Shown here: positions 3,512 to 62,394 of the stretch, one piece after another
How positions within the stretch are numbered: position 1 is the stretch's first letter
How the letters are laid out: each line of letters opens with the position of its first letter
Source of the DNA: a plasmid
Sequence record: NZ_CP072340.1
DNA: 64,000 nt
Reading direction: 5' to 3' (one strand)
The notes under the pieces: generated by a model
The model's input: the letters and a program-made list of their open reading frames with translations, nothing else
Told to the model about the DNA's origin: nothing
The model's database searches: none
Translations under genes and position numbers: made by a program

Positions 3512-3588
3512 GGCTCCGTAGCTTAGCTGAATAGAGCGTAGGATTCCGGTTCCTAAGGTCATGGGTTTGAATCCCATCGGAGTCACCA
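3512..3588 (+). tRNA. tRNA-Arg (anticodon CCG)
   Basis: Hand-folded cloverleaf: acceptor GGCTCCG/CGGAGTC, D stem GCTT/GAGC, anticodon stem TAGGA/TCCTA with loop TTCCGGT (CCG), T arm ATGGG-TTTGAAT-CCCAT, discriminator A, and CCA encoded. Confidence 0.85.
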
Positions 3589-3589
3589 A

Positions 3590-3622
3590 AGAGAAGATAC
3601 AAACGGTATCTTCTCTTTATTG
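3590..3622 (+). terminator. rho-independent terminator after tRNA-Arg
   Basis: Hairpin gagaagatac-aaacg-gtatcttctc followed by ttt. Confidence 0.6.
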
Positions 3623-3828
3623 TAAAATAATGTTTGTGAAGATTATCAACGAGTTACAGACGTATATTAAATAAAAACAAAAATGCGTCTCTCTGTGTGG
3701 CCATTCCCTAATTTTGTTCCTTTCATTCTATCAATCCTGAACTTCCAATCAAGCAACTTTCCTCACCAATCGTACATCTTTTCCGCTGCGTGTAATGTGT
3801 TGTGGCACACCTCTCAAGCTGAGTACGA

Positions 3829-3893
3829 AGTTTTAGATATCAGTCACGTTCGTTTTAGATATCAGTAATGATAGTTTTAGATATCTAAAACTT
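3829..3893. repeat. array of three GATATC-centred boxes (TTTTAGATATC...) at exact 22-bp spacing; locus A
   Basis: GATATC at 3836, 3858 and 3880. The third box is the perfect palindrome gttttagatatctaaaac. The 30-mer ttagatatcagtcacgttcgttttagatatc recurs at 59403-59434. Confidence 0.7.
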
Positions 3894-4226
3894 TTCTATC
3901 TCTTATGTGTGGTCAATAAATTAAGTGATGCTCATAATCAATTATCAATATATTTAAGCCAATCTTTCAGCCAGTCTGCCATCTCAAGGAAGGAGCATAG
4001 CAGGCTACACGACTGATGATAGATGGCGGAATGACGAAAGGAGGGAGTTCTTTGTTGTAGTGCAGTACGCTTTGCAGTAGTTTTGTGTACCGGTCCTGTC
4101 CATGTGTTTAAACTACTGCATTAAGTAGGGGAGTAGTTTGCATTTATCCGCAACTCGCTGCCGAACCGTTCTGTTTTATCATTGACAGTAATGCAATAAT
4201 CTTTGTGAGCTGCCGTTATTCATAGT

Positions 4227-6614
4227 ATGAATAAAGCAAAACTTCTATCCATTGCGCTGTTGTTCGTGTGTCTGCTCTATGCTGGTAATGCTATGGCACA
4301 GTCGTTTACGTTGCAAGGAAAGGTGTCCGACCAGGACGGAAATCCCATTGAGCTGGCATCAGTCATTGTGGCTTCACAAGGAAAAATGGCGATGTGTAAC
4401 CTCAAGGGCGAGTTCAGCATGCAGTTGCAGAGCGAAGATTCGGTGAAGATTCGCTTCTCCATGATTGGCTATAAGAGCAAAACCAGAGTGCTGCATCGCC
4501 CGCAAGGCAAGCAGACGCTGCAAGTCCAGCTGACCAGCGATAACCAATTGCAGGAGGTTATAGTAGAGGCGCAAACACCGCAGCATGGTACTACCGAGAA
4601 CATAAAGGTGGAAGCAACCAAGCGAAACCCCTCCGTCTCGGGCAATGCCGTAGAGGAAATATTGCAGACACAGGCCGGAGTGTCCACCCATTCCGAGCTT
4701 TCGTCGCAGTATAACGTGCGCGGTGGAACGTTCGACGAGAACTCTGTATATATAAATAATGTGGAAGTGTATCGTCCTTTCTTAGTCCGCAGCGGACAGC
4801 AGGAGGGGCTTTCGGTGATAAATGCCGACCTTGTGGACCGCGTCGGGTTCTCTACGGGAGGCTTCGAGGCCAAGTATGGCGACAAGATGAGCTCGGCTTT
4901 GGACATCACCTACAAGCGTCCGAAGCGCACCGAAGGTTCCTTTACGGCATCGATGCTGGGCGCAAGCGGATACTTCGGACTGGCATCGAAGAAGCTTACG
5001 TGGACGAACGGACTGCGATACAAGACCAACCGATACCTGTTAGGATCGCTGGAAACAAAGGGAGAGTACAATCCATCGTTCTTGGACTACCAGACTTACC
5101 TTTCATGGCAACCGTCCAAACGGTGGCAGGTAGACTTCATCGGCAACATTTCGGAGAACAATTACAACTTCGAACCCGAGGACCGAACAACCAATTTCGG
5201 TACGCTGAAGAACGTAAAGTCGTTTAAAGTCTACTTCGATGGCAAGGAAAAAGACCTCTTCCGCACCTTCTTCGGCTCGCTAAGCGTTACGCGGCATCTC
5301 TCAAAGCGTACCGATGTGTCGCTGATAGCATCAGCCTTCTCCACCAAAGAGCAGCAACGATACGACATACAGGGGCAATATTGGCTCACACAGACCGAGA
5401 CTTCGGAGAATTTAGGAGTGGGAACATACATGCAACACTCGCGCGACTACCTTAAAGCAGACGTGAAAAGCCTGAAGTTAATGCTGTTGCAGCGTGCAGG
5501 AACGCACAGAATAGAAGGCGCTTTCACCTATAAGATGGAGAAAATCAAGGAAAACTCGGCAGAATACGAGTATCGCGACTCGGCAGGATACAACATTCCG
5601 CACAACGGCGAAACTCTCGACATGATCTATTCGCTGCGGGCTCGCAACACATTGGACGCCAAACGCATGGAAGTCTACGTGCAAGACACATGGAACTTTA
5701 AGAGCAACGACTCCATACCAACCCTCTTTCGGCTGAACTATGGTGTGCGTTACGCCTACTGGAACTTTAACGGAGAGAGCATTGTTTCGCCACGTGCATC
5801 GCTCAATATCACCCCCGGCTGGAACCGAAACCTGTCGTTCCGTGTGGCAGCAGGTCTCTATTACCAGGCACCGTTCTATAAAGAGCTGCGCGATACCACC
5901 ATGATTAACGGCGTAACCTACGCCCTGCTGAACAAGAAAACGCGTTCTCAGCGGTCCATACACGCATTGGCATCGATGAGTTACCGCTTCACAATGCTGA
6001 ACAGACCCTTCAAATTCACTGCCGAAGCCTACTACAAAGCCATCTCGCGCCTTGTTCCTTACTCGGTAGACAACGTAAAAGTAACCTATTTTGGCGACAA
6101 ACAGACTTCCGGACACGCCACTGGGCTCGACCTAAAGCTATTCGGAGAGTTTGTGCCGGGGGCAGATTCGTGGCTCACGCTCAGTGTCATGAACACTGCA
6201 ATGAAGCTGAATGGCAAGAACGTACCCCTGCCAACCGACCAGCGTTTTGCCCTGAACCTTTTCTTTACCGACTATTTCCCCGGCTCAACACGCTGGCGAA
6301 TGTCGCTGAAACTGGCGTATGCAGACGGTCTCCCGTTCTCTGCACCCCACCAGGAACTAAGCAACAACTCTTTCAGAGCACCTGCCTACAAGCGTGCCGA
6401 CATAGGAATGAGCTATCGTCTGTTCGACAATCAGGACGGTTCGCGCCACTCCATCTTCCGCAACGTGTGGCTGGGAGTAGACTGTCTGAACCTTTTCGGC
6501 ATCAGCAACGTAAACTCTTACTACTGGATAACGGATATTTCAGGACAGCAATACGCCGTGCCTAACTATCTTACAGGCCGACAAATCAATGCGAAACTGT
6601 CGGTAGAATTCTAA
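4227..6614 (+). CDS. TonB-dependent outer-membrane receptor with an N-terminal carboxypeptidase-regulatory-like domain
   Basis: Signal peptide. A CarbopepD_reg-like segment (FTLQGKVSDQDGNPIELASVIVASQGK) is followed by plug-like and beta-barrel sequence. Length is 795 aa. Confidence 0.8.
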   Translation: MNKAKLLSIALLFVCLLYAGNAMAQSFTLQGKVSDQDGNPIELASVIVASQGKMAMCNLKGEFSMQLQSEDSVKIRFSMIGYKSKTRVLHRPQGKQTLQVQLTSDNQLQEVIVEAQTPQHGTTENIKVEATKRNPSVSGNAVEEILQTQAGVSTHSELSSQYNVRGGTFDENSVYINNVEVYRPFLVRSGQQEGLSVINADLVDRVGFSTGGFEAKYGDKMSSALDITYKRPKRTEGSFTASMLGASGYFGLASKKLTWTNGLRYKTNRYLLGSLETKGEYNPSFLDYQTYLSWQPSKRWQVDFIGNISENNYNFEPEDRTTNFGTLKNVKSFKVYFDGKEKDLFRTFFGSLSVTRHLSKRTDVSLIASAFSTKEQQRYDIQGQYWLTQTETSENLGVGTYMQHSRDYLKADVKSLKLMLLQRAGTHRIEGAFTYKMEKIKENSAEYEYRDSAGYNIPHNGETLDMIYSLRARNTLDAKRMEVYVQDTWNFKSNDSIPTLFRLNYGVRYAYWNFNGESIVSPRASLNITPGWNRNLSFRVAAGLYYQAPFYKELRDTTMINGVTYALLNKKTRSQRSIHALASMSYRFTMLNRPFKFTAEAYYKAISRLVPYSVDNVKVTYFGDKQTSGHATGLDLKLFGEFVPGADSWLTLSVMNTAMKLNGKNVPLPTDQRFALNLFFTDYFPGSTRWRMSLKLAYADGLPFSAPHQELSNNSFRAPAYKRADIGMSYRLFDNQDGSRHSIFRNVWLGVDCLNLFGISNVNSYYWITDISGQQYAVPNYLTGRQINAKLSVEF

Positions 6615-6677
6615 GGAAGCGAGGAAAACAATAACACAATTTAACGGATTTAGTTTGTAAGAATTACATAAAAACAT

Positions 6678-6685
6678 TATCTTTG
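6678..6685 (+). promoter_or_regulatory. -7 promoter element TATCTTTG for rubredoxin
   Basis: TAnnTTTG match 38 bp upstream of the ATG at 6723. Confidence 0.45.
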
Positions 6686-6722
6686 CAGCGTTAATAGCAA
6701 ATAAAGATAAAGACAAAACATT

Positions 6723-6887
6723 ATGAAGAAATATGAATGTAATACCTGCGGGTACATTTACGACCCTGCAGTAGGCGATCCAGATGGTGGCATAGAGCCA
6801 GGCACAGCTTTCGAAGATATCCCAGACGATTGGGTTTGCCCACTTTGTGGAGTATCAAAAGACGATTTTTCAGTTGTCGAGGAATAA
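6723..6887 (+). CDS. rubredoxin (54 aa)
   Basis: Translates to [54 protein letters not shown]. The CxxCG...CPxCG pairs are the classical rubredoxin signature. It is absent from the ORF track because it is under 60 aa. Confidence 0.9.
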
Positions 6888-6916
6888 TTCATTGATTAAA
6901 ATATTTACAAAACGTT

Positions 6917-6958
6917 GAGGGGTATGTAGCTTTTTTGCTATATGCCCCTCTTCCTTTT
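6917..6958 (+). terminator. rho-independent terminator after rubredoxin
   Basis: gagggg-tatgtagcttttttgctatatg-cccctc followed by ttcctttt. Confidence 0.6.
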
Positions 6959-7100
6959 GTCTGCCAATAAAGTTGTACGCACCATGCAGGGTTGCCATTG
7001 CGCCTCGTCCTTGTCAGGCATATTTCTCACAAAGTTTACCAATATTCCTTACGTTTACTGCTTGTATGGCATTGCCACGTTGCTTGTTCAATATTCCGGA

Positions 7101-7180
7101 ACAGGCTCTTTTATCATGCAAAACAGTGGGTTTTGCACTGTAAAACAGGCTCTTTTGCCCCACAAAACAGTGGGTTTTGT
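7101..7180. repeat. two tandem degenerate copies of the dispersed hairpin-repeat family (AACAGGCTCTTTT ... CAAAACAGTGGGTTTTG)
   Basis: aacaggctctttt at 7101 and 7143; caaaacagtgggttttg at 7119 and 7163. Lies between convergent genes. The ORF-track ORFs here (6942..7289, 6992..7327) are judged spurious. Confidence 0.6.
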
Positions 7181-7266
7181 ATTATGCTGGCATACAGATT
7201 ATTACACAACGAAATTCTTTGCCCGTACCATTTGCCAATCTATGGTTTTTCGAAGGTTGGCAAATT

Positions 7267-8613
7267 TCACTCCGTTTGTCTGTCTATAAGTTCTTTGATG
7301 TTGATGGTTTTCAGCTCTTTCAGGTAGGTTGCGTGAATGTTTTTCACCTTTTTGTATATGTCTTTCTCCCACACATGCTCTGGCAACTGACTGGTCAAGG
7401 CAGGTTTCAGGCTGGGTACTGACTCCATGCGAGCCGCCAATTCGCCCACGGTCATGTCGTTGGTGTCGTGCGTAGGCGTATAAGTTACTTCATCGCTGGT
7501 TGGCAAATGGTTCTCGGCAACCAGTCCTATGTCTTTCAATCGGTCTAATATTGCCAATGTAACACGTATTGGAATGCCTGTTTCTGTCTCCAATTCTAAT
7601 GCTGTATAAGGTTTCTCATCGTGCGAAAACCGTTGACAGATGTAGCATAGCACAGTTGCACTCATTGCAAGAAAGTCGTTATAGCAAACGTCTTTCATCT
7701 CTATCATACATTCGTAGTAGTCCAAATTCTGGTTGGTATAGCAGAGTTCGGCACAGAAAAGGCAGATATACCACGACATAAGCATCCACAACATAAACAA
7801 AGGCAGGGCTGCAAACGAACCGTAGATGGCATTATAGCTTGTAAGAAACACCTGTCCGTGAATGTAAAGTCCCTGTAAGGCAAGCATTGACAAGCTGGCA
7901 AGTACGGAGGGACCTATCGTTTTGGAGAGCTGAACCTTTGCGTTGGGCATGAAGACATAGAGCACAATAAACATAAAAGTAAGTATTGCCCACGGCAAAA
8001 GATAGCGGAGCGAGAAGCGGGCAATGTTTCCCAGAAGTGCAAAACTGCTAAGATTTTCTACGAAACCATAAAGATAGATGCTCAGTCCAGACATTATGAT
8101 GATGCTGATTGGCACCAGAAACATCATTGCGGTGTAGTCTATGAGCACCCGACTGATGGGTCTTGTGCCCTTAACCTGCCATATACTGTCGAAAACGCGC
8201 TCTACAGTGTTTATCAAAGAGAACACACTGTAAAGCATAATCAGCAGTCCGATGCCGATAAAAATGCCTGTTTTGGCATGCGTAAGATAAGAATGTGTAA
8301 GTGTTAACAGCCAGTTTGCCACTTCGGGTTGTGCCGAAAACATTTCTCGAAACTGGGTTTCTATGAACTTGCCGAAACCAAAACCGTTGGCAACAGCAAA
8401 TATCAAGGCTGCTATGGGCACTATTGCCATAATGGTAGAGAACGACAGCTGAGCTGCAAAAGTTACGTGTTCGCGCTCTATAAAGAACTTTATTGTAAGG
8501 TAAAACTTCTGCAACAGTCTAATAGCAATACCTTTACGTTTAGACTTATACTCTGTTTTTTGCCACATTTCTGTGGTAAAAAAGTTCTTTATTTTGGTTA
8601 TATCCATCTTCAT
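7267..8613 (-). CDS. YihY/BrkB-family inner-membrane protein
   Basis: Polytopic membrane core with the YihY-type pattern FAAQLSFSTIMAIVPIAALIFAV..., plus a hydrophilic C-terminal extension. Start set at MKMDITK rather than the longer ORF-track start. Confidence 0.7.
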   Translation of the reverse strand: MKMDITKIKNFFTTEMWQKTEYKSKRKGIAIRLLQKFYLTIKFFIEREHVTFAAQLSFSTIMAIVPIAALIFAVANGFGFGKFIETQFREMFSAQPEVANWLLTLTHSYLTHAKTGIFIGIGLLIMLYSVFSLINTVERVFDSIWQVKGTRPISRVLIDYTAMMFLVPISIIIMSGLSIYLYGFVENLSSFALLGNIARFSLRYLLPWAILTFMFIVLYVFMPNAKVQLSKTIGPSVLASLSMLALQGLYIHGQVFLTSYNAIYGSFAALPLFMLWMLMSWYICLFCAELCYTNQNLDYYECMIEMKDVCYNDFLAMSATVLCYICQRFSHDEKPYTALELETETGIPIRVTLAILDRLKDIGLVAENHLPTSDEVTYTPTHDTNDMTVGELAARMESVPSLKPALTSQLPEHVWEKDIYKKVKNIHATYLKELKTINIKELIDRQTE

Positions 8614-8684
8614 TCTCGTTCCTTTTTTGTTTCTCAAAGGGTGTGTCTTCTTTACAAAAGGGCAAAGAACACAGTGCAAACTTA

Positions 8685-8726
8685 ATAAAAAAAGGTGAAA
8701 TCAACAACGATTTCACCTTTTTATAT
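8685..8726. terminator. bidirectional hairpin terminator (A-run / hairpin / T-run)
   Basis: aaaaaaaggtgaaatc-aacaacg-atttcaccttttt. Probably ends the small-peptide operon on the minus strand. Confidence 0.55.
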
Positions 8727-8811
8727 CTATGTATGTTGCAACTTGCCGATAGGGTTTCAGTAAGTTGTTGTATGCCATTTGCCTTAAAGATAGCAGCGAA
8801 TTGGCATGGAT

Positions 8812-8901
8812 TCAGCGGTTCTTTTTGTCTTGATACATAAAGTAAAGACGTCCAATTACTGCGCCCACAAAGAGCAAAATCGCTACTGCTAATGTTCCCA
8901 T
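8812..8901 (-). CDS. small single-TM peptide, 29 aa (MGTLAVAILLFVGAVIGRLYFMYQDKKNR)
   Basis: Hand translation of the minus strand, ATG at 8901-8899 and TGA at 8814-8812. ggagaatagt precedes the ATG. Paralog of the next two peptides. Confidence 0.55.
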   Translation of the reverse strand: MGTLAVAILLFVGAVIGRLYFMYQDKKNR

Positions 8902-8924
8902 ACTATTCTCCTAACTTCTAATTA

Positions 8925-9032
8925 CTATCCTTTTCCGTTAGATTTACGGTTCTTTTTGTCTTGATACATAAAGTAAAGACCTCCAATTGTTGCTATTAAC
9001 GAAACTAAAATCGATGCTACTATTGCTCCCAT
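8925..9032 (-). CDS. small single-TM peptide, 35 aa (MGAIVASILVSLIATIGGLYFMYQDKKNRKSNGKG)
   Basis: Hand translation, ATG at 9032-9030. Same hydrophobic-core plus YQDKKNR tail architecture. Confidence 0.55.
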   Translation of the reverse strand: MGAIVASILVSLIATIGGLYFMYQDKKNRKSNGKG

Positions 9033-9068
9033 ACTATTCTCCTAACTTCTAATTACTATCCTTTTCCG

Positions 9069-9164
9069 TTAGGATTTACGGTTCTTTCTGTCTTGATATA
9101 TAAAGTAAAGACCACTAATTGTTGCTAATAACGAAACAAAAATCGATACTATTACTGCGCCCAT
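9069..9164 (-). CDS. small single-TM peptide, 31 aa (MGAVIVSIFVSLLATISGLYFIYQDRKNRKS)
   Basis: Hand translation, ATG at 9164-9162, two nt after the stop of the upstream 63-aa ORF. Confidence 0.55.
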   Translation of the reverse strand: MGAVIVSIFVSLLATISGLYFIYQDRKNRKS

Positions 9165-9165
9165 A

Positions 9166-9357
9166 CTATTCTCCTTCCTTCTGTTTTTTATCTTTATTGA
9201 TTAAAATGAGACCCCAACCTAAAGTCAATATTGTGCCAATCATCACCCCAACAAAGACCCAAGGGCGGTTCATATTGCCCAAAGCCGAAGATAATAGCAA
9301 AGCTGTTACCATATACTTTGCTATATCCATAAACCATTTTCCTAACTCTTTTTTCAT
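9166..9357 (-). CDS. small membrane protein, 63 aa, whose C-terminal half is paralogous to the three peptides downstream
   Basis: ...WVFVGVMIGTILTLGWGLILINKDKKQKEGE parallels AVIVSIFVSLLATISGLYFIYQDRKNRKS. The -7-like TATATTTG sits immediately 5' of the ATG on the minus strand (plus 9362-9369), so the transcript is leaderless or very short-leadered. Confidence 0.5.
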   Translation of the reverse strand: MKKELGKWFMDIAKYMVTALLLSSALGNMNRPWVFVGVMIGTILTLGWGLILINKDKKQKEGE

Positions 9358-9473
9358 AATGCAAATATATAAATAATTCTTGTATTACGGTTCTTATTCT
9401 TAGAAAAAATAGCCAATATCTTTTATTTTGCCCTTCTTTCTATCGCTATTGGTGTTTTATTATAATTCAAAAG

Positions 9474-9512
9474 AAACCTCGCTATAAAGGAATATCCCAT
9501 ATAACGAGGTTT
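9474..9512 (-). terminator. hairpin terminator downstream of htpG
   Basis: aaacctcg-ctataaaggaatatcccatataa-cgaggttt. Confidence 0.5.
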
Positions 9513-9537
9513 AAAACTATGTGTTATCGTTGTCGGT

Positions 9538-11595
9538 TTACTTAATTAAGTCTACCGAACGCTTAATAAACTTGTCGAGCGCAGCACCCTTTAGCAATCC
9601 GTTTTGCAAGAGAGCGAGGTCTATTAGCTGATGTATGGCATTATTGTTCTTGGCATAATCGGCTATCACAGTGTTCTTTTCGTTACGCTGTTTCGTAAGT
9701 TCTTCCTCTGTGTTCTTAAGTTCGTCCTTCTCGTTTTGGGTAACTTCCTCTGGCTTTTTCTTACCTTGTGCCTGTCGCAAGGCAGCTTCGCGCGCCTGCA
9801 AACCCTTAATTTCGCTACGTATAGGCTGTAGTTTTTCGGCAGTAGAAGTATTGCTTTCGCTCAGAATTTGCTTAATAATGGCGTGGTCAGAGTTCAGTAC
9901 GATGGTGTATGTGTCGGGCATTTGTGCATAGAAACCCATACCCTGCTGGTATTGGCTCATCTCTTTCATACGGCGCATATACTCGTTTTGTGTTGCCACA
10001 ATTGGCTGAGCGGTTTCGCCCAATGGCTCTACGCTTACCATAAACTCTGCCTTTTCCACCTTAGGCAGCTGCGATTGGAAAGCCTGAGTTAGCGTATCGG
10101 CATCGTTTTCGCCAAGTTTTTCGCCCTTTGTTTCGTCTTTTTTCGCAATGATATGGTCTATAACGTCAGAGTCTACCCGTACAAAACGCGACTTGTCGAA
10201 CTTCTGTTCCAGCATGGAAAGCGTAGGAACGTCTAACTGTCCGTTGGCTAACAGCACGGAATATCCCTTTGCACGTGCCGTTTCAATGTATGAATACTGT
10301 TCCTCTTTTTCGGTTGCGTAGAGGTAAACAAGCGTTCCGTCCTTGTCGGTCTGGTTGTCTTTAATAAGCGTTTTATACTCTTCGAAGGTGAAGTTCTTGC
10401 CATCTACATCGGTAAAGAGCGAGAAATCTTTTGCACGGTCGTAGAAATCGGGTTGCGAAAGCATACCATAGTTCACGAAAAGCTTAAGGTCTTGCCACTT
10501 TTCTTCGTACTCTTTACGGTTCTCTTTGAATATTCCGTTAAGCCTGTCTGCCACTTTCTTGGTGATGTAAGTAGATATTTTCTTTACGTTAGCATCGCTT
10601 TGCAAATAGCTTCGGCTCACGTTCAGCGGTATATCCGGTGAGTCTATCACACCATGAAGCAGGGTAAGGAACTCCGGAACAATGCCTTCTACCTGGTCTG
10701 TAACGAATACTTGGTTGCAATAGAGCTGTATCTTGTTGCGCTGAAGCTCTATATTGTTCTTCACGCGTGGGAAATACAGAATGCCGGTCAGGTGGAATGG
10801 ATAGTCAACATTCAGGTGAATCCAGAACAAAGGTTCGTCGTTCATTGGGAAGAGCGTACGATAGAACTGCTTGTAGTCCTCGTCTTTCAGTTCAGCGGGA
10901 GCTTTTGTCCATAGCGGTTCCACATTATTTATAATGTTGTCCTTATCTGTTTCCACGCTTTTACCGTCTTTCCATTCGGTTTGTTTGCCGAAGACAACGG
11001 GCACAGCCATAAACTTGCAGTACTTGTTCAGCAGGCTTTCTATCTTCTGTTTCTGTAAAAACTCCTTGCAATCGTCGTCTATATGGAGCACGACATCGGT
11101 GCCATGGGTTGCCTTTTCGGTATCTTCTATCGAAAATTCCGGGCTTCCGTCGCAGCTCCAACGTACTGCTTGTGCCCCGTCGCGATAGCTTTTGGTTACT
11201 ATTTCAACCTTTTTAGACACCATGAAGGCAGAGTAGAAGCCCAGACCGAAGTGTCCTATGATGGCTTCAGCCTTGTCTTTGTACTTGTCCAAGAAGTCTG
11301 TAACACCCGAAAAGGCTATCTGGTTGATGTATTTGTCTATCTCTTCTGCCGTCATACCTATGCCATCATCGCTTACGGTGAGTGTTCCGGCTTTTTCGTC
11401 GAGACTTACACGAACCTTCAAATCGTTGGTTTCGCCTTTAAACTCGCCTGTTGCAGCAAGCGTGCGCAGCTTTTGTGTTGCATCGACAGCGTTAGATACC
11501 AACTCGCGAAGGAAGATGTCGTGGTCGGAATAGAGGAATTTCTTAATGACAGGGAATATGTTCTCTGTCGTTACACCTATTTTACCTTTTTGCAT
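9538..11595 (-). CDS. htpG: molecular chaperone HtpG (Hsp90)
   Basis: 685 aa. N-terminal GHKL ATPase motifs (LRELVSNAVDA, DDGIGMT) and overall Hsp90 architecture. Confidence 0.92.
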   Translation of the reverse strand: MQKGKIGVTTENIFPVIKKFLYSDHDIFLRELVSNAVDATQKLRTLAATGEFKGETNDLKVRVSLDEKAGTLTVSDDGIGMTAEEIDKYINQIAFSGVTDFLDKYKDKAEAIIGHFGLGFYSAFMVSKKVEIVTKSYRDGAQAVRWSCDGSPEFSIEDTEKATHGTDVVLHIDDDCKEFLQKQKIESLLNKYCKFMAVPVVFGKQTEWKDGKSVETDKDNIINNVEPLWTKAPAELKDEDYKQFYRTLFPMNDEPLFWIHLNVDYPFHLTGILYFPRVKNNIELQRNKIQLYCNQVFVTDQVEGIVPEFLTLLHGVIDSPDIPLNVSRSYLQSDANVKKISTYITKKVADRLNGIFKENRKEYEEKWQDLKLFVNYGMLSQPDFYDRAKDFSLFTDVDGKNFTFEEYKTLIKDNQTDKDGTLVYLYATEKEEQYSYIETARAKGYSVLLANGQLDVPTLSMLEQKFDKSRFVRVDSDVIDHIIAKKDETKGEKLGENDADTLTQAFQSQLPKVEKAEFMVSVEPLGETAQPIVATQNEYMRRMKEMSQYQQGMGFYAQMPDTYTIVLNSDHAIIKQILSESNTSTAEKLQPIRSEIKGLQAREAALRQAQGKKKPEEVTQNEKDELKNTEEELTKQRNEKNTVIADYAKNNNAIHQLIDLALLQNGLLKGAALDKFIKRSVDLIK

Positions 11596-12031
11596 AATCT
11601 ATATTTTTATTTGTTAATTTCAATCTGCCTGTATCATTACAAATGGCGTGCCAAAATGTAACAACCAGACTTTCGCATTGCAACCAGATTTTACATATCG
11701 TCTTATTTTGATGGTTGTAACCTGCGAAAATATCTAAATTTATTCAAATTTATTGCAGTTTTATGCTCCGTTCTCCATTTTATTTTATACTTTTGCAGGC
11801 ACTCAAGAGCTTGTCAAAACTAAATAACAACATCGAATAGGCATCGTTTCAGAAGCCTATACGGTAGCAGACTCATTGCTAAATGGTTATTTCTCCATGC
11901 TTTGGAAAGCCAACAACTTGGAAAAACATGACTGACAGAAAGGCTCAAGACATCATAACAACAAATAACAGTCCTATTCAATAACGTATAAAAACTAACA
12001 TTTCTATACAAAACACCAATCTATAAGCTAC

Positions 12032-12568
12032 ATGAATGCAAGGAAAATGGAGACCCGTGGACAGGTTCACGTCTATACGGGCAACGGAAAAGGTAAGACC
12101 ACGGCAGCTTTCGGACTTGCCATACGAGCCTGTATGGCTGGCAAAAAAGTTTTCATCGGACAGTTCATGAAGTCGATGCAATACAACGAAACACGCATTG
12201 CAAGATACATAGACAACCTGTCTGTAGAGCAGTTTGGCAATGGTTGCATACTGACGCGTGCCCCCAACGAGGTGGATAGGCGGCAAGCTCAGGACGGAAT
12301 GCATAGGTGCGCAGAACTTCTTGGCTCGGGTAATTGGGACGTAGTGATATTCGATGAGATTACAATAGCACTGCACATGGAACTCGTCAGCATTGAAATG
12401 CTTATGGAAGCATTGGAAAACAGAGACTCCAAAACAGAGGTTGTGCTTACCGGACGCCATGCTCCGAAACAACTTATAGACTATGCCGACCTTGTAACAG
12501 ACATGCAGGAGGTGAAGCATTACTATGCCAGCAAGGGACTGTTGTCGCGCAATGGCATAGACAGGTAG
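12032..12568 (+). CDS. cobO: cob(I)yrinic acid a,c-diamide / cob(I)alamin adenosyltransferase (CobO/BtuR family)
   Basis: P-loop VYTGNGKGKTTAAFGLAIRA...GQFMK, typical of CobA/CobO/BtuR. 178 aa. Confidence 0.75.
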   Translation: MNARKMETRGQVHVYTGNGKGKTTAAFGLAIRACMAGKKVFIGQFMKSMQYNETRIARYIDNLSVEQFGNGCILTRAPNEVDRRQAQDGMHRCAELLGSGNWDVVIFDEITIALHMELVSIEMLMEALENRDSKTEVVLTGRHAPKQLIDYADLVTDMQEVKHYYASKGLLSRNGIDR

Positions 12569-12715
12569 GCAATCTTCAAGAACCACACAATTTGTATGAC
12601 GTGTCAGGATTTTGCTTTCCGATACGCCTCAACCGCCTTTCAAACTCACGAAGATAACGTTACTGAAACAAGGCAATTGTGCCTTAGTATTTCAATACCC
12701 CTTGTTTCGTTGTGT

Positions 12716-12780
12716 AAAAGAGCCTGTTTTACACGGCAAAAGAGCCTGTTTTGGAACGCAAGACAGGCTCTTTTGTTTTA
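12716..12780. repeat. dispersed hairpin-repeat family: three copies of AAAAGAGCCTGTTTT / CAGGCTCTTTTG
   Basis: aaaagagcctgtttt twice, then caagacaggctcttttg in inverted orientation. Lies between convergent cobO and lipA. Confidence 0.7.
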
Positions 12781-12919
12781 TTAAGGCAGTAGCATGGTAA
12801 AATGACACCTACACTTCGGGTGTATTGTTGCCTGATGGTTGCGACGGGTCTGGACAGTTCTTCCGTGTCTTGATGCACTTTATAACGGGCAACTGGAAAC
12901 TTTCAAACGGCAGAAATGG

Positions 12920-14743
12920 CTATACGGTATCGGCAGCATGGTATGAACTGCGCACCAATGGACCACTTACTACGTGCTGGAAGCCTTTCTCCAATCCTAT
13001 TTTCTTGTACTCTGCAAACTGCTGTGGACTGATATAGGCTTTCACTGGCAGATGTTTCGACGTGGGTTGCAAGTACTGTCCCAGCGTCAGACGCTTGCAG
13101 CCGGTGGCGAGAATGTCGTCCATGGTCTGCAATATCTCCTCGTGCGTTTCGCCTAAACCTAACATAAAGCCTGTTTTAGCCTGCACTCCGCAACGCACAA
13201 TCTCTGCCAGCACCTCCAAACTGCGGTCGTATTGTGCCACGCTGCGCACCGATGGAGTAAGCCTGCGCACCGTCTCCATGTTGTGTCCACACACGTGTGG
13301 CTTTGTGGTTAGCACCTTTTGTATCAGTTCTTTCTTCCCCATGAAGTCCGGTATAAGCAGTTCTATCTTTGTGTCAGGGTTCAGTTGCTGTATGGCTTCC
13401 ACGGTTTTCACCCAGTGTTCGGCACCGTAGTCGGGCAAATCGTCGCGGTCTACCGACGTGATTACGGCATAACGAAGGTTCAAAGCCTTTATCGATTCAG
13501 CCACGTGTCGGGGTTCTTCAGGGTTCAAAGCGTTGGGACGTCCACTCAATGTGTTGCAGAACCGACACTTGCGGGTACATATTTCGCCCCCTATCATGAG
13601 CGTTGCGGTGCGTGCTGCCCAGCATTCTGTGCGGTTCGGGCATAGTCCGCTGGTGCAGATAGTGTTCATGTGGTGGCGTGCCAGAATGCCTGCTGTTTCG
13701 CCAGACGACTTCTTTGAGGTTAGGTTTATCTTCAGCCAATCGGGCTTCATCACGTGTGGCGGACGACCGAAGAGCAGGCGCAAGAACTGTTCGGTGGTGA
13801 AATTGCGAATCACGTTGCCCATTTCCACGCCCTCGATAGCCTTCTCTACCGCCTCGCGCGTAAAGCTGACACCATGCAGAAGGTCGAGCAATTCACGGTC
13901 AAGGTCGCCCGACAGGAAGTAATCGCCCATCAGATTGATGTTCACAATCTTTTGGTTCTTCAATTCAATATGTGCCTGAATGGTGCCCACATCGGCAAAA
14001 CGCTTCTGCCGAACCTCCGTATATTTAGGGTTCTTGCCGTATGTAAAGTCGTCAGAAGCAAGTCCTTTCTCAATCTCTTCAATCTGTTTCATGTCGTCAG
14101 GAGTAAGTTCCAGTACCTCGTTTCCACACATATACTTGCGTACGTAAGCCATAAACGCCTCTATATCGAGCGTGGTATAGTTGCCCACATTGGCAACACG
14201 CTGGCGCACGGACGCTACCCCCTTGCTCTGCAACTTCTCCTTTCCGGGTGTCAATGCTTCTGAAAGGTGTTCCAACTGCGTGCTGAACAAGAGCGAATTG
14301 TGCAGCACGCTGCGCCCTTTAAGGCGGTAGAAGGCACTTCCTGCCACCTTCTTTCCCTCCACGAGAATATCGTTTCTGCCCGAAAGCTCGGTGTTAATGC
14401 CAAGACTTCTTATCATGTCGGCAATGCCCTGCATATACTCTACAAAGGCACTATTCACGTTTTCGGCAAACGAGATGTACGAAAACTGCATGCAGCCCTT
14501 GTCGGCATAGATGCAGCCTCCGCCACTCTTACGGCGGAAAATGTGTATGCCGTTGCGCTTGCAGTAGTCTATGTTCACTTCGTTTTCGGTCAGCTGGTTG
14601 CGTCCAAGCATGACCGTCGGCTCTACACGCCACGCCATAAAGTAGTCGTCGTCGGTGTATTTGCGTGCCACATACTCTTCTACGGCAAAGTAAAAAGGCA
14701 GTTGGTGGGTAGTCTTTCGTTCAGGAATAATGATATATTTCAT
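12920..14743 (-). CDS. lipA: fused lipoate-protein ligase (LplA-like) / lipoyl synthase (LipA) protein, 607 aa
   Basis: The N-terminal ~330 aa look like LplA/BPL_LplA_LipB (FYFAVEEYVARKY..., RRKSGGGCIYAD). At about residue 335 the LipA entry motif KPDWLK begins, followed by the radical-SAM cluster CTRKCRFCNT and a second Cys cluster. One continuous ORF. Confidence 0.75.
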   Translation of the reverse strand: MKYIIIPERKTTHQLPFYFAVEEYVARKYTDDDYFMAWRVEPTVMLGRNQLTENEVNIDYCKRNGIHIFRRKSGGGCIYADKGCMQFSYISFAENVNSAFVEYMQGIADMIRSLGINTELSGRNDILVEGKKVAGSAFYRLKGRSVLHNSLLFSTQLEHLSEALTPGKEKLQSKGVASVRQRVANVGNYTTLDIEAFMAYVRKYMCGNEVLELTPDDMKQIEEIEKGLASDDFTYGKNPKYTEVRQKRFADVGTIQAHIELKNQKIVNINLMGDYFLSGDLDRELLDLLHGVSFTREAVEKAIEGVEMGNVIRNFTTEQFLRLLFGRPPHVMKPDWLKINLTSKKSSGETAGILARHHMNTICTSGLCPNRTECWAARTATLMIGGEICTRKCRFCNTLSGRPNALNPEEPRHVAESIKALNLRYAVITSVDRDDLPDYGAEHWVKTVEAIQQLNPDTKIELLIPDFMGKKELIQKVLTTKPHVCGHNMETVRRLTPSVRSVAQYDRSLEVLAEIVRCGVQAKTGFMLGLGETHEEILQTMDDILATGCKRLTLGQYLQPTSKHLPVKAYISPQQFAEYKKIGLEKGFQHVVSGPLVRSSYHAADTV

Positions 14744-15049
14744 TGTTCAGATCTATGTTCTCAATATGTGTTGATAGGTTGTTTCACCTTATCGTATATA
14801 TAATGCCCACAATTTCATCGGCAAGTCGCTACACCCTGCCAATGCCATCGAGGGCTTGCAAATGTACGAAAAAATATTGATTTGGGCGAAAATACACCCT
14901 TTTTTATTACAAACGATACTTTCCCGGAGGATTAAAAAAGATGAAATTACACCATAAAACGAATATTTTCTTTAACTTTGTACAATTGTTTGCGAACTGT
15001 GACAGCTACAAAACGCAACGGAAGAACAATACAATAAAAATAGAAAACA

Positions 15050-16129
15050 TTGATAATGAAGAAACTACAGCAGGTCTTAATGCTCGCTGTCTGCCTACTG
15101 ATACTGATGGTGGCAGCCGTCCAGCGCGATGGAAAACTATGGGGAAACAGTCTGAAAGCTGCGAAAGCCGACAGCCTGAAGACTGCAAGAATAGACACGA
15201 TGCGTACGCTCGATGACGGAACAAAGGTGATAAATACCACCATGTTGGGTAAAGACATTACGGGATATGGTGGTGCTGTGCCGTTAGAAATATATGTAAA
15301 AGACAACAAAATAGTGAAAGTGAAGGCGTTAAAGAATGCCGAAACGCCCGAATTCTTTGCCGAAACGAAGCCATTGCTTGCCAAATGGAACGGCAAGACC
15401 ATAGACGAAGCACTGCGATTGAAGGTAGATGCCGTCAGTGGAGCCACTTTCTCGTCGCGCGGAATCATCGGAAACATGAGGCGCGGACTGGCTTACGCTT
15501 CGCAAAAAGCCGTAGAGCCAAGCATTCTGGAGCAGATGGACCTCAATGCAAAAAACGTTTCGGCACTCTTGGTTGTGCTCTTGGGTGCCATTGTTCCGCT
15601 GTTCTATCGAAACAAACACTACCGCACGGTGCAGCTTTTGCTCAACGCTGTGGTGCTGGGCTTCGGTTGTGGTACGTTCCTTTCGTGGTCGCTGTTCGTC
15701 AATTTCGTGTCAAGCGGCATTAATTTCTGGGCTTCGCTCGTACCTGTTCTTATGTTAGTCACTGCCTTTGTCTATCCGCTTTTTGGCAAGAAGAACTATT
15801 ATTGCACGAACATTTGTCCGTGTGGCTCGCTCCAAGACCTGGCTGCGAAAACGAAAAACAGGAAGTGGCGCATGGACGGAAAGACGGTTAAAGCGCTCAA
15901 TGCTGCCCGTAAACTCTTGTTTGCAGTGCTGTTGGTGCTTGCACTTTCTGGCATTTGGTTCAAGTGGATGGACTACGAAGTGTTCTCTGCCTTCATCTTT
16001 CAGACGGCTTCGGTGTTTGTCCTGGCGCTCGGCGGAGTGTTTTTGCTACTTTCCTTCTTCGTTGCCCGCCCCTATTGCCGCTTCGTCTGCCCTACGGGAA
16101 CACTGTTCAAGATAGCCGAACGCCGTTAG
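15050..16129 (+). CDS. FMN-binding domain / 4Fe-4S ferredoxin-type polytopic membrane protein (NosR/NapH-like)
   Basis: Periplasmic FMN_bind-like segment (GAVPLEIYVKDNKIVKV...SGATFSSRG), followed by TM helices and two Cys clusters (CTNICPCGSLQ, CRFVCPTGTL). Confidence 0.65.
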   Translation: MIMKKLQQVLMLAVCLLILMVAAVQRDGKLWGNSLKAAKADSLKTARIDTMRTLDDGTKVINTTMLGKDITGYGGAVPLEIYVKDNKIVKVKALKNAETPEFFAETKPLLAKWNGKTIDEALRLKVDAVSGATFSSRGIIGNMRRGLAYASQKAVEPSILEQMDLNAKNVSALLVVLLGAIVPLFYRNKHYRTVQLLLNAVVLGFGCGTFLSWSLFVNFVSSGINFWASLVPVLMLVTAFVYPLFGKKNYYCTNICPCGSLQDLAAKTKNRKWRMDGKTVKALNAARKLLFAVLLVLALSGIWFKWMDYEVFSAFIFQTASVFVLALGGVFLLLSFFVARPYCRFVCPTGTLFKIAERR

Positions 16130-16337
16130 CCGATGGCAGGAAACAAACAGGATAAAAACAATAACGATAGGGAAAAATCAGTTTCCGACCTACCCTTTGC
16201 CTAATACTTGCCGCCATTTCGCAATTCTGCATATATATGAAGAAAAGCAAGCAATGGTGCAAGAAATCCACCGAACGGAAAGCATGGTGTAACCATTTCA
16301 TTATCAATACATAACAAAAACCATTGTTTCGCCTCAT

Positions 16338-16380
16338 AAAAACGCCTGTTTTGCATGGTAAAACAGGCTCTTTCGTCTTG
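16338..16380. repeat. dispersed hairpin-repeat family copy (aaaacgcctgttttgcatggtaaaacaggctctttcg)
   Basis: Inverted pair of the AAAAGAGCCTGTTTTG core with a 7-nt loop. Downstream of the NosR-like gene. Confidence 0.65.
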
Positions 16381-16660
16381 CAAAACAATATCTTTTGCAA
16401 AGCCAAAACGCTGCTGTCGTTTTCCCGTCGGATATTCATTAGGAGACAAAAGTATCTTTATGCAGAAACCGTATATGGCAGGAAGAAGACAGAAAGCGCG
16501 TGTTGCGCATTACACCAACCATGCAGTCGTGTCTTATGAGTCATGCAACAAGGTGAATTTCAAACAGGAAGTGCAGAGCCGGCAAAAAAATATTGGAAAA
16601 CCATTCCGCACAATTGGACTTCCAGAAAATATTTTGTAATTTTGCTTTCAAATAATAAAA

Positions 16661-18115
16661 ATGACGATGAAAAAGAGATTATTTAGTGCAGTGCTTGCAC
16701 TGTTGTTCAGTGTTGCATGCTCGGTTATGGCAGTTGCGGCTACCTCTGGTGGCGACGAGGCAGACGAAGTGGTGCGTGCGGGAGGCTTTCTGTTTCATTT
16801 CAACCGCGACAGAACGGCACTCTCGCTGTGGTTCTGCAACCGTGCCGACCGCAACATGACACTGCCCGACAAGGTTTATTACGACGGCACAACGAAGGAG
16901 GCAAGTCTCAAACCGTTCGGTAAGGCAAAGGCTTACACTGTGGAAGAGCTCGAAGAGCGCACGTTCAGAGGCAACCCCGATATACAGTCCGTCACCATTC
17001 CAGCCTCGTATCGCACCGTGGGCGGCACCGCCTTTATGAATTGTCCGAACCTGAAGACCTTCGTAGGCTTGGGCAAGGACGTCATGTATGGCAACGATCT
17101 TTTTTCTGGATGTACGGCTTTGGAGAACGTAACCATAGATGCACGCGCTATCGGTTCACACATTTTTGAAGGATGCGGAAGGCTCATCAAGCCTCACATT
17201 ACGGGCACATTGGATCACATTCCCGATGCCGCTTTCCAGAAAAGTGGCATCAGAAGCATCGACTTTATACCGCAGAGCGTTACCGCTATATGGGCGGGAG
17301 CCTTTACAGAGTCGCAGTTGGAGGGCGACCTTGTGCTGCCGTTGCGTTTCGCCGTCATAGTCAATGGGGCTTTCTCGCTGACGAATATCCGAAGCGTAAC
17401 CGTTCCGGAAGGCTTCAGAGAACTACGTGATGGGGTCTTCGCAGGGTGCCGTTCGCTCAGCAAAGTGTCGCTGCCGAGTACGCTGAAATACCTTGGCGGC
17501 ATGGAATTCTCGGCTACGGCAATCAAGCAGATCGATATTCCGAACTCGGTTATAGACCTCGGTCCGTCAGCTTTCTTCAACTGTTTACAGCTCGATTCAG
17601 TCCGTCTTTCAAATCAATTGGACAAGTTAGAACCTTCTATTTTCCAAGGTACGGCACTGAAACACATATACCTTCCAGCTTCCATCAAGAGCATAGGGAA
17701 AGGCTGTTTCATGTTCTGTAGGCAGCTAACCGATGTCTACTGCTTTTCGACAACCCCGCCAGAGGCTCACGAATATAGCTTCAACGACTTTGACAAGCCC
17801 ACCATACATGTTCCGAAAGGTACGCTCGCGGCATATAAAAGTGCTCCGACATGGAAGAAATTCAAGAAGTTCAAGGAGATGCCTGCCGCTGCGACAGATA
17901 TTTCTACCACACAGTTTGCCACATCAAACATATACCGTCAGGACAACGAAGTGCACGTTAACGATGTTCCTGACGGCGCGTTCGTACAGGTCTACACGCT
18001 TGACGGTCAGCTCATAAGCGAGGTTACGGCTCACAACACTGGGGCTGTTCTGCCGCTGAACACCGAGAACCCCGTTATTGTCAGGGCAGGCAGACAAACC
18101 GTAAAGCTTAGATAA
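16661..18115 (+). CDS. BspA-type leucine-rich-repeat surface protein with a T9SS C-terminal sorting domain
   Basis: Signal peptide. Repeated AFxxCxxLxxVxIPxSV units. C-terminal VQVYTLDGQLISEV...VIVRAGRQTVKLR is CTD-like. A TAATTTTG -7 element at 16637-16644 abuts the ATG. Confidence 0.75.
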   Translation: MTMKKRLFSAVLALLFSVACSVMAVAATSGGDEADEVVRAGGFLFHFNRDRTALSLWFCNRADRNMTLPDKVYYDGTTKEASLKPFGKAKAYTVEELEERTFRGNPDIQSVTIPASYRTVGGTAFMNCPNLKTFVGLGKDVMYGNDLFSGCTALENVTIDARAIGSHIFEGCGRLIKPHITGTLDHIPDAAFQKSGIRSIDFIPQSVTAIWAGAFTESQLEGDLVLPLRFAVIVNGAFSLTNIRSVTVPEGFRELRDGVFAGCRSLSKVSLPSTLKYLGGMEFSATAIKQIDIPNSVIDLGPSAFFNCLQLDSVRLSNQLDKLEPSIFQGTALKHIYLPASIKSIGKGCFMFCRQLTDVYCFSTTPPEAHEYSFNDFDKPTIHVPKGTLAAYKSAPTWKKFKKFKEMPAAATDISTTQFATSNIYRQDNEVHVNDVPDGAFVQVYTLDGQLISEVTAHNTGAVLPLNTENPVIVRAGRQTVKLR

Positions 18116-18128
18116 ACAACATTGAATA

Positions 18129-18869
18129 TTGAGGCTTATGGAAACTGACGATAGATATCAGCCGCTTTTATACTATATAGTGTTTGGTTCTGACGTATCA
18201 GAGTTAGTCGTTTCTCGTACGAAACACCATGTAGACACTATTCCGCAGGGATTGGAAATAGAACAACTGAATCGTCAAGAACACGGAGAGAGAATGGACT
18301 GGCTGCTGAACGGAACGATAGAAAAGGTGCTCCGGCAACACGATGCTACACTGTACGATACCTGCAAGGACACAGACTGCTGGACCATTCTGCGCGGACG
18401 GATTGCCACTGACGGCGGTTCAGACTATTTGCGAAACACCATCGGGCTGGTTCAGGCACTCATCGAACAAGGCGGAATAGGCGTCTTCGACCTGCTGACA
18501 CTCGACTTGCAGCCGGCAAGCAAATGGTCTGCCCGCTACTTCGAAAAGGAAACAGACCCACAGACACATGTAGTTGTGCTGAAATCGGACAACGAAGATG
18601 GCAGCGTATGGCTGCATACACGAGGCATGATTAAGTTCGGTCGCCCCGATTTCAGCGTCCTTCAACTTGCTCCATCGCAGGTAAACGATGCCAAGCAAGC
18701 CCTCGACCAACTCATCTTCCATAGTGGAAAAGGTGCGGAAATGAGTAAGAAACTACGCCTGCATACGGCAAACGGCAAGACCATCGACGCACAACTCCGC
18801 CTCGTTCCCGACTTCGACAACTTCGATTTCAATAACGCATACTACGAAACAGAGCTGAAGTTGCAGTGA
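18129..18869 (+). CDS. hypothetical cytoplasmic protein (246 aa)
   Basis: Long ORF with no recognisable motif. Follows the LRR gene by 13 bp. Confidence 0.45.
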   Translation: MRLMETDDRYQPLLYYIVFGSDVSELVVSRTKHHVDTIPQGLEIEQLNRQEHGERMDWLLNGTIEKVLRQHDATLYDTCKDTDCWTILRGRIATDGGSDYLRNTIGLVQALIEQGGIGVFDLLTLDLQPASKWSARYFEKETDPQTHVVVLKSDNEDGSVWLHTRGMIKFGRPDFSVLQLAPSQVNDAKQALDQLIFHSGKGAEMSKKLRLHTANGKTIDAQLRLVPDFDNFDFNNAYYETELKLQ

Positions 18870-18987
18870 AGCAGTAGCGACTTTATCCTTCTCTCACCCT
18901 CGATTGGACAGCCCCTCGTGTGCCTATGCTGCTTCCTCTCGTTGCCAGCACATTGCAAAACCCGTAGGTTTTAAACGGTAGAAGCAT

Positions 18988-19269: not shown

Positions 19270-19325
19270 AACAACGACTTACAGATTGAAAGCTGACAAA
19301 CAAGTAACAAATCAATTTTTGGACT

Positions 19326-20054: not shown

Positions 20055-20174
20055 CTACATGCTTCGTATGCAGTTTCACAAAAAAGCAAGATTACACAAG
20101 AACTATGGTATTTCAGAGTTCTCAGATGACCTTATACTAACATGTGGAAACGACTTTTGGATAAAATTTTTCGG

Positions 20175-50084: not shown

Positions 50085-50267
50085 TATGCTTATCTTTTTA
50101 TTATTCCAGGGACAAATTTACAAATAAAAAAATAACAGCCCTATTTCTGTCTTACATTTTTAATATTTTTCTATTCCCAGACTAACTTGAGAAGAAAAAA
50201 ACATGTTGGTTGAACTGGAGGAAGCAACTGTGCAACGTGCAAAAAAGCCAGTCGAATGCTTTGCATA

Positions 50268-50332
50268 AATTAGATATCTGCCATTCTCGTTTCAGATATC
50301 TGGCACAATGGAATTAGATATCTAATTTTACA
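50268..50332. repeat. array of three AGATATCT boxes at exact 22-bp spacing; locus B
   Basis: GATATC at 50273, 50295 and 50317. The third box is the palindrome aattagatatctaatt. Lies upstream of the DUF421 gene and downstream of dnaB. Confidence 0.65.
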
Positions 50333-59301: not shown

Positions 59302-59402
59302 TTTCCGCCAGGCAAAAAGCAACAACTTTTTTCTATGTATTGCCCTACATTACACCTTATTATATATAAGGCAGAAATCATACCATCATACGCACACTAA
59401 AA

Positions 59403-59440
59403 ATTAGATATCAGTCACGCTTGTTTTAGATATCTAATTT
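59403..59440. repeat. two TTAGATATC boxes at 22-bp spacing; locus C
   Basis: GATATC at 59407 and 59429. aaattagatatcagtcacgcttgttttagatatctaatttt is near-identical to locus A. Confidence 0.65.
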
Positions 59441-60141
59441 TTTTTTATTCTGTTCATTTACATTACCTTTTTTAGGCTCTTCAGTTAAATGCGTAGATGC
59501 CTATCATGTAGAGCATATAGCTTTAATGTGAAGAACTCATCATTTCCAAAAGTTTTATGCATTATGCTGGCATTCATATTTTGGTTTTTTATTCACTACA
59601 GAGACATATAATGCCATCATTTTTTCAAATATTATAAGCCTCCCATTATCTACGTATTTAACGGAAAAACCTACAAAACATTATCTGTCACGCACAAATT
59701 AGACATCAAAATCGTCATTCATTATATTTTCTCAAATACTATTTTGCAGATACGGATAATTTTACATACCTTTGCACAAGATATCATAAATATAAGTTGT
59801 GTGCCATAAAGAGTTAAATAACGTGGGAGTATATCTTTATTCACGAGATTATAAAGATAGAGATGAATTACAGGGGAGCAGAGATTTTCATGTAAATTAT
59901 GGTGCTTTGTATTTGGTCAGAATCAATATTTTATTTAAATCCTTATCTGAATATTTTTATGCACATATATGTGCGAAGAACATTGTGCCACCCCTAACAG
60001 GAGAAGGACTTTGATATTCTGTCTTGTTTATCGTGTCTGTTACTTTATCTACAGGAATATTAGGAAAAAAATGCTTTAATAGTTGCTTTTTTTTTAATAA
60101 AGAGTTATAAAATCAGAAGATAAAATATATAAATTTTAATT

Positions 60142-62385: not shown

Positions 62386-62394
62386 TAAAGAAAT

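Follow-up and report, generated by a model that had tools for sequence, protein, structure and literature searches.

BrickBuilt, a repeat family of Porphyromonas gingivalis, consists of a 23-nt tandem repeat with a leader and a tail and is present in 19 intergenic copies (Klein et al. 2015, PMC4596501). The number of units varies between strains at conserved loci, the host range is narrow and there is no coding capacity; some copies are without the leader, the tail or both (PMC4596501). The unit consensus is AGAYCATARTATCCTCTCRTRTG, and the termini, GAGACCTTTGCA and TGCAAAGGTCTC, are of the IS5 type (PMC4596501). A repeat family of Prevotella, described here, has much in common with BrickBuilt: both belong to oral Bacteroidales, are intergenic and narrow in host range, have about 20 copies per genome, and are built of spacerless tandem units of 22 or 23 nt in variable number, with a leader and a tail.

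Other repeats offer partial parallels. Pneumococcal BOX elements have the order boxA - boxB(n) - boxC, with a boxB of 45 bp. They are intergenic and non-coding, occur in dozens of copies, are thought to be MITE-like and have been explained mainly via RNA secondary structure. The REP/BIME sequences of enterobacteria are intergenic clusters of short imperfect palindromes, often 3′ of genes and variable in copy number, that are bound by host proteins in Escherichia coli. REPs alternate in orientation, are separated by defined linkers and are associated with RAYT transposases. ARG boxes, the paired binding sites of ArgR, are about 18 bp long with an AT-rich centre and lie 21 bp apart centre to centre, an arrangement that suits cooperative binding by oligomers of a dimeric protein.

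The 64,000-nt stretch of DNA analysed here (sequence record NZ_CP072340.1), referred to below as the window, is from Prevotella nigrescens; its RadA, IspE and YetF-like proteins match those of strains F0103 and ATCC 33563 exactly. It has three arrays of GATATC-centred boxes, designated A, B and C (Table 1). These are likely to be solo members of a dispersed non-coding repeat of P. nigrescens and Prevotella pallens, a MITE-like element with an internal minisatellite, the boxes of which are probably bound by a putative dimeric protein. The loci would be short "solo" arrays with unit numbers of 3, 3 and 2, built from a 22-bp tandem repeat whose invariant part is the palindromic box T-Y-AGATATCT-R; in most P. 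pallens copies the array (n x 22 bp) would stand between a leader and a tail as the middle module of a three-part element. A modular MITE-like intergenic repeat with a variable-number minisatellite is a known kind of sequence; this Prevotella family is apparently undescribed.

Table 1. Positions in the window of the 22-bp arrays, a possible relic and the tRNA gene next to array A
Feature	Position	Strand	Description
Array A	3828..3893	+	three contiguous 22-bp units: AAGTTTTAGATATCAGTCACGT / TCGTTTTAGATATCAGTAATGA / TAGTTTTAGATATCTAAAACTT
Array B	50265..50330	+	three units, flanks strongly diverged, cores intact: ATAAATTAGATATCTGCCATTC / TCGTTTCAGATATCTGGCACAA / TGGAATTAGATATCTAATTTTA
Array C	59399..59442	+	two units: AAAAATTAGATATCAGTCACGC / TTGTTTTAGATATCTAATTTTT
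Possible degenerate relic	59682..59708	+	...ATCTGTCACGC ACAAATTAGACATCAAAA; weak nhmmer match, E = 0.054; uncertain
tRNA-Arg (CCG)	3512..3588	+	context of array A; own hairpin and T-run at about 3589-3620

The GATATC cores are found where the preliminary description placed them, at 3836/3858/3880, 50273/50295/50317 and 59407/59429, and each spacing is exactly 22 bp. Its perfect 18-bp palindrome at locus A (gttttagatatctaaaac, 3874-3891) and the 30-mer common to loci A and C, with the two differences reported between the copies, are also present. Two details differ from that description. At locus B the middle box reads TCAGATATC in place of TTAGATATC, and only in the last unit of each array is the TTAGATATCTAA palindrome complete; earlier units have TTAGATATC followed by AGT or TG. 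A search of the whole 64-kb window found exact TTAGATATC at these three loci only, and five pairs of GATATC exactly 22 bp apart were observed where random placement of the 18 sites in the window predicts 0.005; the box pattern is therefore not a product of chance.

Tandem Repeats Finder called a period-22 array at 3825-3885 (locus A), and an nhmmer profile of the unit detected the three loci and one weak relic in the window and nothing else. On sequence comparison the relic resembles an array end joined to the pseudo-unit with which the tail module of P. pallens opens (see below). Boxes with one mismatch elsewhere in the window, at 11.5 kb and 45 kb, are not arrays. Units are contiguous and head-to-tail with an exact 22-bp period; their orientation does not alternate and is alike in all three arrays. 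Similarity among the three loci is confined to the arrays themselves, and Rfam, searched at the gathering threshold, gave two tRNAs only and no family at the arrays.

Array A is situated 240 bp 3′ of the tRNA-Arg gene and 335 bp 5′ of a gene for a TonB-dependent receptor (4227-6614). Array B is flanked by two minus-strand genes, with the dnaB stop codon 257 bp and the start codon of a yetF-like gene 181 bp away. Array C begins 98 bp past the stop codon of a TPR-protein gene and 700 bp before the gene of a 747-amino-acid secreted protein, so that the nearest start codons are 181-700 bp from the arrays. The 859- and 747-amino-acid proteins that adjoin arrays B and C are mutually unrelated and have no Pfam family. 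The flanking proteins include no Rep or Cas protein and no regulator; the absence of a cognate regulator gene beside the loci had already been remarked on.

The gene of the 747-amino-acid protein (60142-62385), which has a signal peptide, is encoded within a 3.5-kb insertion relative to P. pallens and to strain L048 (window ~59475-63019), and the C-terminus of this protein is weakly similar to that of a BspA-type LRR protein of the window. Two further kinds of repeat were noted. A 132-bp tandem repeat at 8808-9182 (2.8 copies, 86% matches by Tandem Repeats Finder) is located just past the 5′ end of a minus-strand BrkB-family gene. A second, unrelated set of intergenic palindromic repeats, also with a 22-bp period, is at 7105-7185 and 12712-12780, with units such as GCAAAACAGTGGGTTTTGCAC and CAAAAGAGCCTGTTTTG; similar motifs are found 3′ of dnaB in Prevotella intermedia (L174) and 5′ of the receptor gene in contig L052. 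The interval between the yetF-like and BspA genes has received other DNA in P. nigrescens contig L040, where a microvirus-like prophage with Phage_F capsid and REP_ORF2-G2P proteins is present at ~11200-16900, and a Mob_Pre/ParA-type element occupies the same place in L049.

The number of units is not fixed. Among 12 P. nigrescens sequences, array A occurs with 1, 2, 3, 4 and 5 units (4 in ATCC 33563), and all cores are intact. The one-unit allele is a perfect 22-bp palindrome, AAGTTTTAGATATCTAAAACTT, to which the first unit contributes the left half and the last unit the right half. Array B has three units and is identical in all ten P. nigrescens metagenome contigs examined; array C has two units in most P. 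nigrescens contigs and four in L048. Changes always involve whole units and remain in register, which fits slippage or unequal exchange between identical cores, a process that would alter unit number. The same process also fits the observation that the units of A are near-identical and variable in number, while those of B are diverged and invariable.

In P. pallens, contigs L017 and L021 are syntenic with 50.6-64 kb of the window at 78-93% nucleotide identity, and arrays are found at both orthologous sites. That of array B has five units (L021, L175) and a homologous flank on the dnaB side; that of array C (L017 6125-6212, also L175) has a homologous flank on the TPR side, and both differ from the window in unit number. 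Some units of the P. pallens array C orthologue (L017 6125-6146, L175 ~2102-2145) have GACGTC in place of GATATC, a change of the central TA to CG by which the palindrome is kept; there is one such unit in ATCC 700821, and there are two in another P. pallens strain. A full element with 9, 8, 5 or 4 units is present in the rpmG/DUF4295-radA intergenic region of P. pallens-type contigs, a site with no element in the window. Metagenome contig L044 has a YetF-like protein identical to that of P. nigrescens together with a P. pallens-like radA/rpmG region (85-87% identity to the window) with an 8-unit element, and represents either interspecies recombination or a chimeric assembly.

Other orthologous sites have no array. 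This is the case in P. intermedia 5′ of the receptor gene (receptor 90% identical to that of the window) and 3′ of dnaB (DnaB 94% identical); in P. intermedia L050, the 258 bp examined 3′ of the TPR gene contain no GATATC. Array B is absent from the orthologous sites of P. ihumii and P. dentasini, and contig L052, with a receptor 93% identical, has no array in the 487 bp examined upstream. The arrays thus grow and shrink in register, are present or absent depending on strain and species, are found in any type of intergenic region and have no fixed neighbour genes.

The wider distribution was assessed with a scan for two phased boxes, TAGATATC-N14-TAGATATCTA, in one genome per species over 185,579 species. 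The preliminary description had proposed a genome-wide search for 22-bp periodicity, and the picture that results is of a multi-copy dispersed family and not of a regulon. The scan detected 39 loci. P. pallens ATCC 700821 accounts for 16 of them, all arrays, and other Prevotella MAGs for three; apart from a REP-like repeat of Burkholderiales (L005, L009, L010, L016), the others are single two-box matches at chance level. The Burkholderiales repeat, with AGATCTAGATATCTAA boxes at 22-bp spacing and two or three per locus, is independent; it also has the TAGATATCTA palindrome, lies between convergent genes in L016 and pointed to no binding protein. In viral contigs a loose two-box scan returned mostly chance matches, and the four real ones lie in host flanks, on Prevotella contigs. 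Neither plasmid nor phage collections contain a match to the composite element.

P. pallens has at least 16 arrays, distributed over both scaffolds/replicons, of 3-9 contiguous 22-bp units with the consensus TCGTTTYAGATATCTATCASNT. Some are placed between convergent genes, and many abut the 3′ ends of genes. At 11 distinct loci, about 11 of the at least 16, the array is enclosed by a conserved leader and a conserved tail. The leader is ~95 bp (GAATnTATAAGTAG...TCTCAGATGTTTAGAAAAG...ATACAGCTACTT). The tail is ~100 bp and opens with a pseudo-unit (AAATTAGATATCACAAAAAA..CAACCnTTAT..TATATTATAA..AAAGA..ATTATGAnTTTTTTATTCTAnAATATTCTGATTT). The resulting elements are 350-450 bp and keep no open reading frame across copies. 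Related versions are found in two other Prevotella MAG genomes, and in a Prevotella MAG a 340-bp element of like design with units ACTCGATAGATATCTTATCGAG is present at two loci. In the P. pallens reference assembly (L011 6551-6585) a run of N falls at an array, and the matching tail module is ~890 bp away.

The outer ends of leader and tail in P. pallens are roughly GAATATTATA and TATAATATTC, and some copies have imperfect inverted termini of ~10 bp, for example GGAATATTATA and TATAATATTC in L008. Profiles of leader and tail match only DNA adjacent to arrays in all loci examined, and hence no autonomous parent element is seen among them. The element may have spread by transposition, as its architecture and patchy distribution suggest; inverted repeats at its ends are short and imperfect, neither exact boundaries nor target-site duplications could be placed, and the empty sites available for comparison have diverged too far to help. 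The window arrays have no leader or tail by the nhmmer profiles. Their probable descent from the composite element is indicated by units 20/22 identical to the P. pallens consensus and by the orthology of B and C.

The family is short (<600 bp), non-coding and multi-copy, as MITEs are. According to the preliminary description, its own reading would have been undone if the boxes proved to be segments of a known multi-copy mobile element with coding capacity; segments of a multi-copy element is essentially what they are, and the element has no coding capacity. A BrickBuilt-type architecture is displayed by the family (11 P. pallens loci), the window arrays themselves being without leader and tail. 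Membership in BrickBuilt fails on unit sequence, unit length and IS5-type termini. The Prevotella unit is 22 nt, TCGTTTYAGATATCTATCACGT, and is unrelated to the 23-nt AGAYCATARTATCCTCTCRTRTG, which has no match in the window at up to three mismatches; the IS5-like termini have none at up to one mismatch. The Prevotella unit also has a perfectly conserved palindromic core, whereas neither "palindrom" nor "GATATC" occurs in the text of the BrickBuilt paper (PMC4596501). Literature searches for the box motif returned primer matches only, and full-text searches for Prevotella MITEs or repeats returned nothing beyond BrickBuilt of P. gingivalis (PMC4596501).

The other systems differ as well. The three-module design is like that of BOX, but phylum and sequence are different, and what is conserved in Prevotella is the identity of a DNA palindrome without stem covariation. 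Units follow one another head-to-tail at exactly 22 bp, unlike the alternating REPs. ARG boxes are similar in being palindromes about two helical turns apart; the Prevotella arrays differ in having no link to a metabolic regulon, up to nine boxes and a MITE-like vehicle, and in being dispensable and strain-variable.

Conservation within the unit was determined from 87 units of 21 arrays. Positions 8-14 (AGATATC) are the same in 87/87 units, T6 is found in 82/87 and T15 in 76/87, and other positions have 0.1-1.3 bits. Between adjacent units, mismatches in the core AGATATCT (positions 8-15) number 10/528, against 394/924 in the flanks. Because GATATC served to define the terminal units of each array, ascertainment contributes to this contrast and somewhat inflates core conservation; phase was the sole criterion for internal units, and none of them is without the core. 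Cores are also kept in 3/3 units of array B and in 5/5 of its P. pallens orthologue, though the flanks there cannot be aligned. Symmetric flank positions do not covary, Watson-Crick counts being those expected of independence. Complementarity beyond the core is thus not selected, and a selected hairpin is unlikely.

Two things are conserved, namely core identity and the 22-bp register. With core and two-turn spacing intact while the flanks drift to near-randomness, the boxes are probably read on one face of the DNA helix by a putative sequence-specific, probably dimeric protein. The suggestion in the preliminary description that phased boxes mark binding by a dimeric protein therefore survives, the boxes having the appearance of recognition sites, and the regulon or iteron role attached to it is unsupported. 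The putative reader could build or mobilise the element, or could be a host DNA-binding protein; any influence of the arrays on genes nearby, for instance as weak terminators or roadblocks, would be incidental.

A more specific version is possible, although it is given a fairly low probability: the boxes might be phased docking sites, on one DNA face and at dozens of intergenic positions, of a putative lineage-specific dimeric GATATC reader, for example a domesticated transposase or a restriction-enzyme-like protein, with a distribution shaped by restriction-modification. In 44 kb of P. intermedia (L050, L174) GATATC was observed once against 9.4 expected (P ~9e-4), an about 10-fold depletion; P. 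nigrescens, array DNA excluded, shows no such deficit (10 observed against 11.6 expected). In both species GTATAC and CATATG are under-represented. The depletion of GATATC suggests restriction-modification pressure, which may account for the array-free P. intermedia loci examined. If the boxes are such docking sites, the occurrence of the family would follow tolerance of GATATC: P. nigrescens and P. pallens have it, and none was found in the P. intermedia sequence examined.

An RNA-level or cruciform function is rather improbable as the main explanation. Boxes co-transcribed as in REP/BIME or BOX elements would pair into hairpins, which would act as transcription terminators or shield mRNA 3′ ends. 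Each window array is located 3′ of a same-strand transcription unit (tRNA-Arg, dnaB, TPR gene), as many P. pallens arrays adjoin gene 3′ ends, and T-rich runs follow arrays A and C. First and last units pair into 14-15-bp AU-rich stems of -12 to -22 kcal/mol with z-scores of -3.8 to -6, and a GATGTC variant in L048 would make a G-U pair on the sense strand. However, intrinsic terminators have a stable G+C-rich hairpin followed by a U-run, for which AU-rich stems are weak, and the tRNA-Arg gene is immediately followed by a terminator-like hairpin and T-run of its own. In the P. pallens orthologue of array B the stem and T-run features are not conserved and the outer inverted repeat is missing, and array A can do without the long stem, as its one-unit allele shows. 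Besides the lack of covariation at symmetric positions, it is identity and not just complementarity that is conserved, and the central ATAT, which would be the loop, is invariant. Hairpin formation is a minority explanation and may be a side effect.

The arrays had been read in the preliminary description as operators of a small regulon or as an iteron-like set, at which a dimeric regulator binds cooperatively and controls, for example, the TonB-dependent receptor. This is now very unlikely. The palindromic core, its conservation and the strict 22-bp phasing are in keeping with such a role, and array A points at the receptor gene. Yet the neighbours are functionally unrelated (TonB receptor; yetF/dnaB; TPR protein and a secreted protein without Pfam family), and the arrays are 181-700 bp from start codons. 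Upstream of the receptor, homology between P. nigrescens and P. intermedia covers ~70 bp before the ATG, and the array is outside it. Nor are boxes conserved at orthologous targets, as would be expected of operator sites: in the sequence examined, the P. intermedia receptor, TPR and dnaB genes are without them, as are orthologous genes in P. ihumii and P. dentasini.

Variation within and between species is also at odds with a regulon. Array A has from one to five units depending on the strain, and it precedes a different gene in L179 and L184. In these two P. nigrescens sequences a 16-kb block, window 4092-20155, which extends from the receptor gene to just before a cation-efflux gene, is missing, and the flanks join cleanly at 96-99% identity. 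Array A, with four units, stays with the tRNA-Arg block and fronts the cation-efflux gene (20219 in the window) because the receptor block is absent. P. pallens arrays are found within leader/tail elements and between convergent genes, a position without any promoter for them to control. The comparative data, with a multi-copy family, variable units, changed neighbours and P. intermedia orthologues without arrays, thus largely refute the regulon reading. Iterons are countered by the three loci in 64 kb, which do not form one origin, by the lack of an adjacent regulator or rep gene or any plasmid match and by the presence of arrays on both P. pallens replicons.

Also very unlikely is that the boxes are hot spots of recombination or integration, serving as target or crossover sites, with dispersed copies that promote rearrangements. 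Array A is 198 bp from the junction of the 16-kb variable block, and the blocks on its two sides are not neighbours in P. intermedia; array B marks the end of synteny with both P. pallens and P. intermedia; and array C is ~35 bp from the 3.5-kb insertion. With one exception these junctions are near boxes and not within them, and no recombinase gene is associated. The exception is L114 (811-8815; IMG/VR contig 3300008154_000038), in which a P. pallens-type leader and 4-unit array are cut directly after a GATATC box and followed by a mobile-element gene, an open reading frame of >2,600 amino acids for a polyvalent protein (InPase, PBECR5, LPD3, ART-PolyVal). The contig represents either insertion of a mobile element into the repeat or an assembly chimera; the other end of an insertion was searched for and not found. 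A TAG-recoded phage was ruled out as the source of the L114 sequence, which has a single giant open reading frame in the standard code. All three window arrays are at or near synteny breaks, and the link is no more than suggestive.

CRISPR, which needs repeats of ~28-37 bp with unique spacers of similar length and cas genes, is excluded by the 22-bp period, contiguous units without spacers (the "spacer" part is conserved consensus) and the absence of cas genes nearby; the preliminary description had also set it aside, as the boxes are too short and too few.

For work on these organisms, a false lead is removed, as there is no TonB-receptor regulon here, and an interspersed repeat family, apparently undescribed, is documented in two common oral Prevotella species. 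Array A, with 1-5 units in 12 sequences, is a ready variable-number marker for strain typing. Such arrays can also break or mask short-read assemblies, the run of N in L011 being a case to compare. Located at or near synteny breaks, the arrays may have a part in the genome plasticity of this two-chromosome group. What is unusual about the family is its palindromic core, invariant and phased at exactly two turns, which probably marks a putative protein-binding site. The near-absolute conservation of an 8-bp palindrome, spaced by exactly two turns between drifting flanks, provides a handle for finding the putative reader protein.
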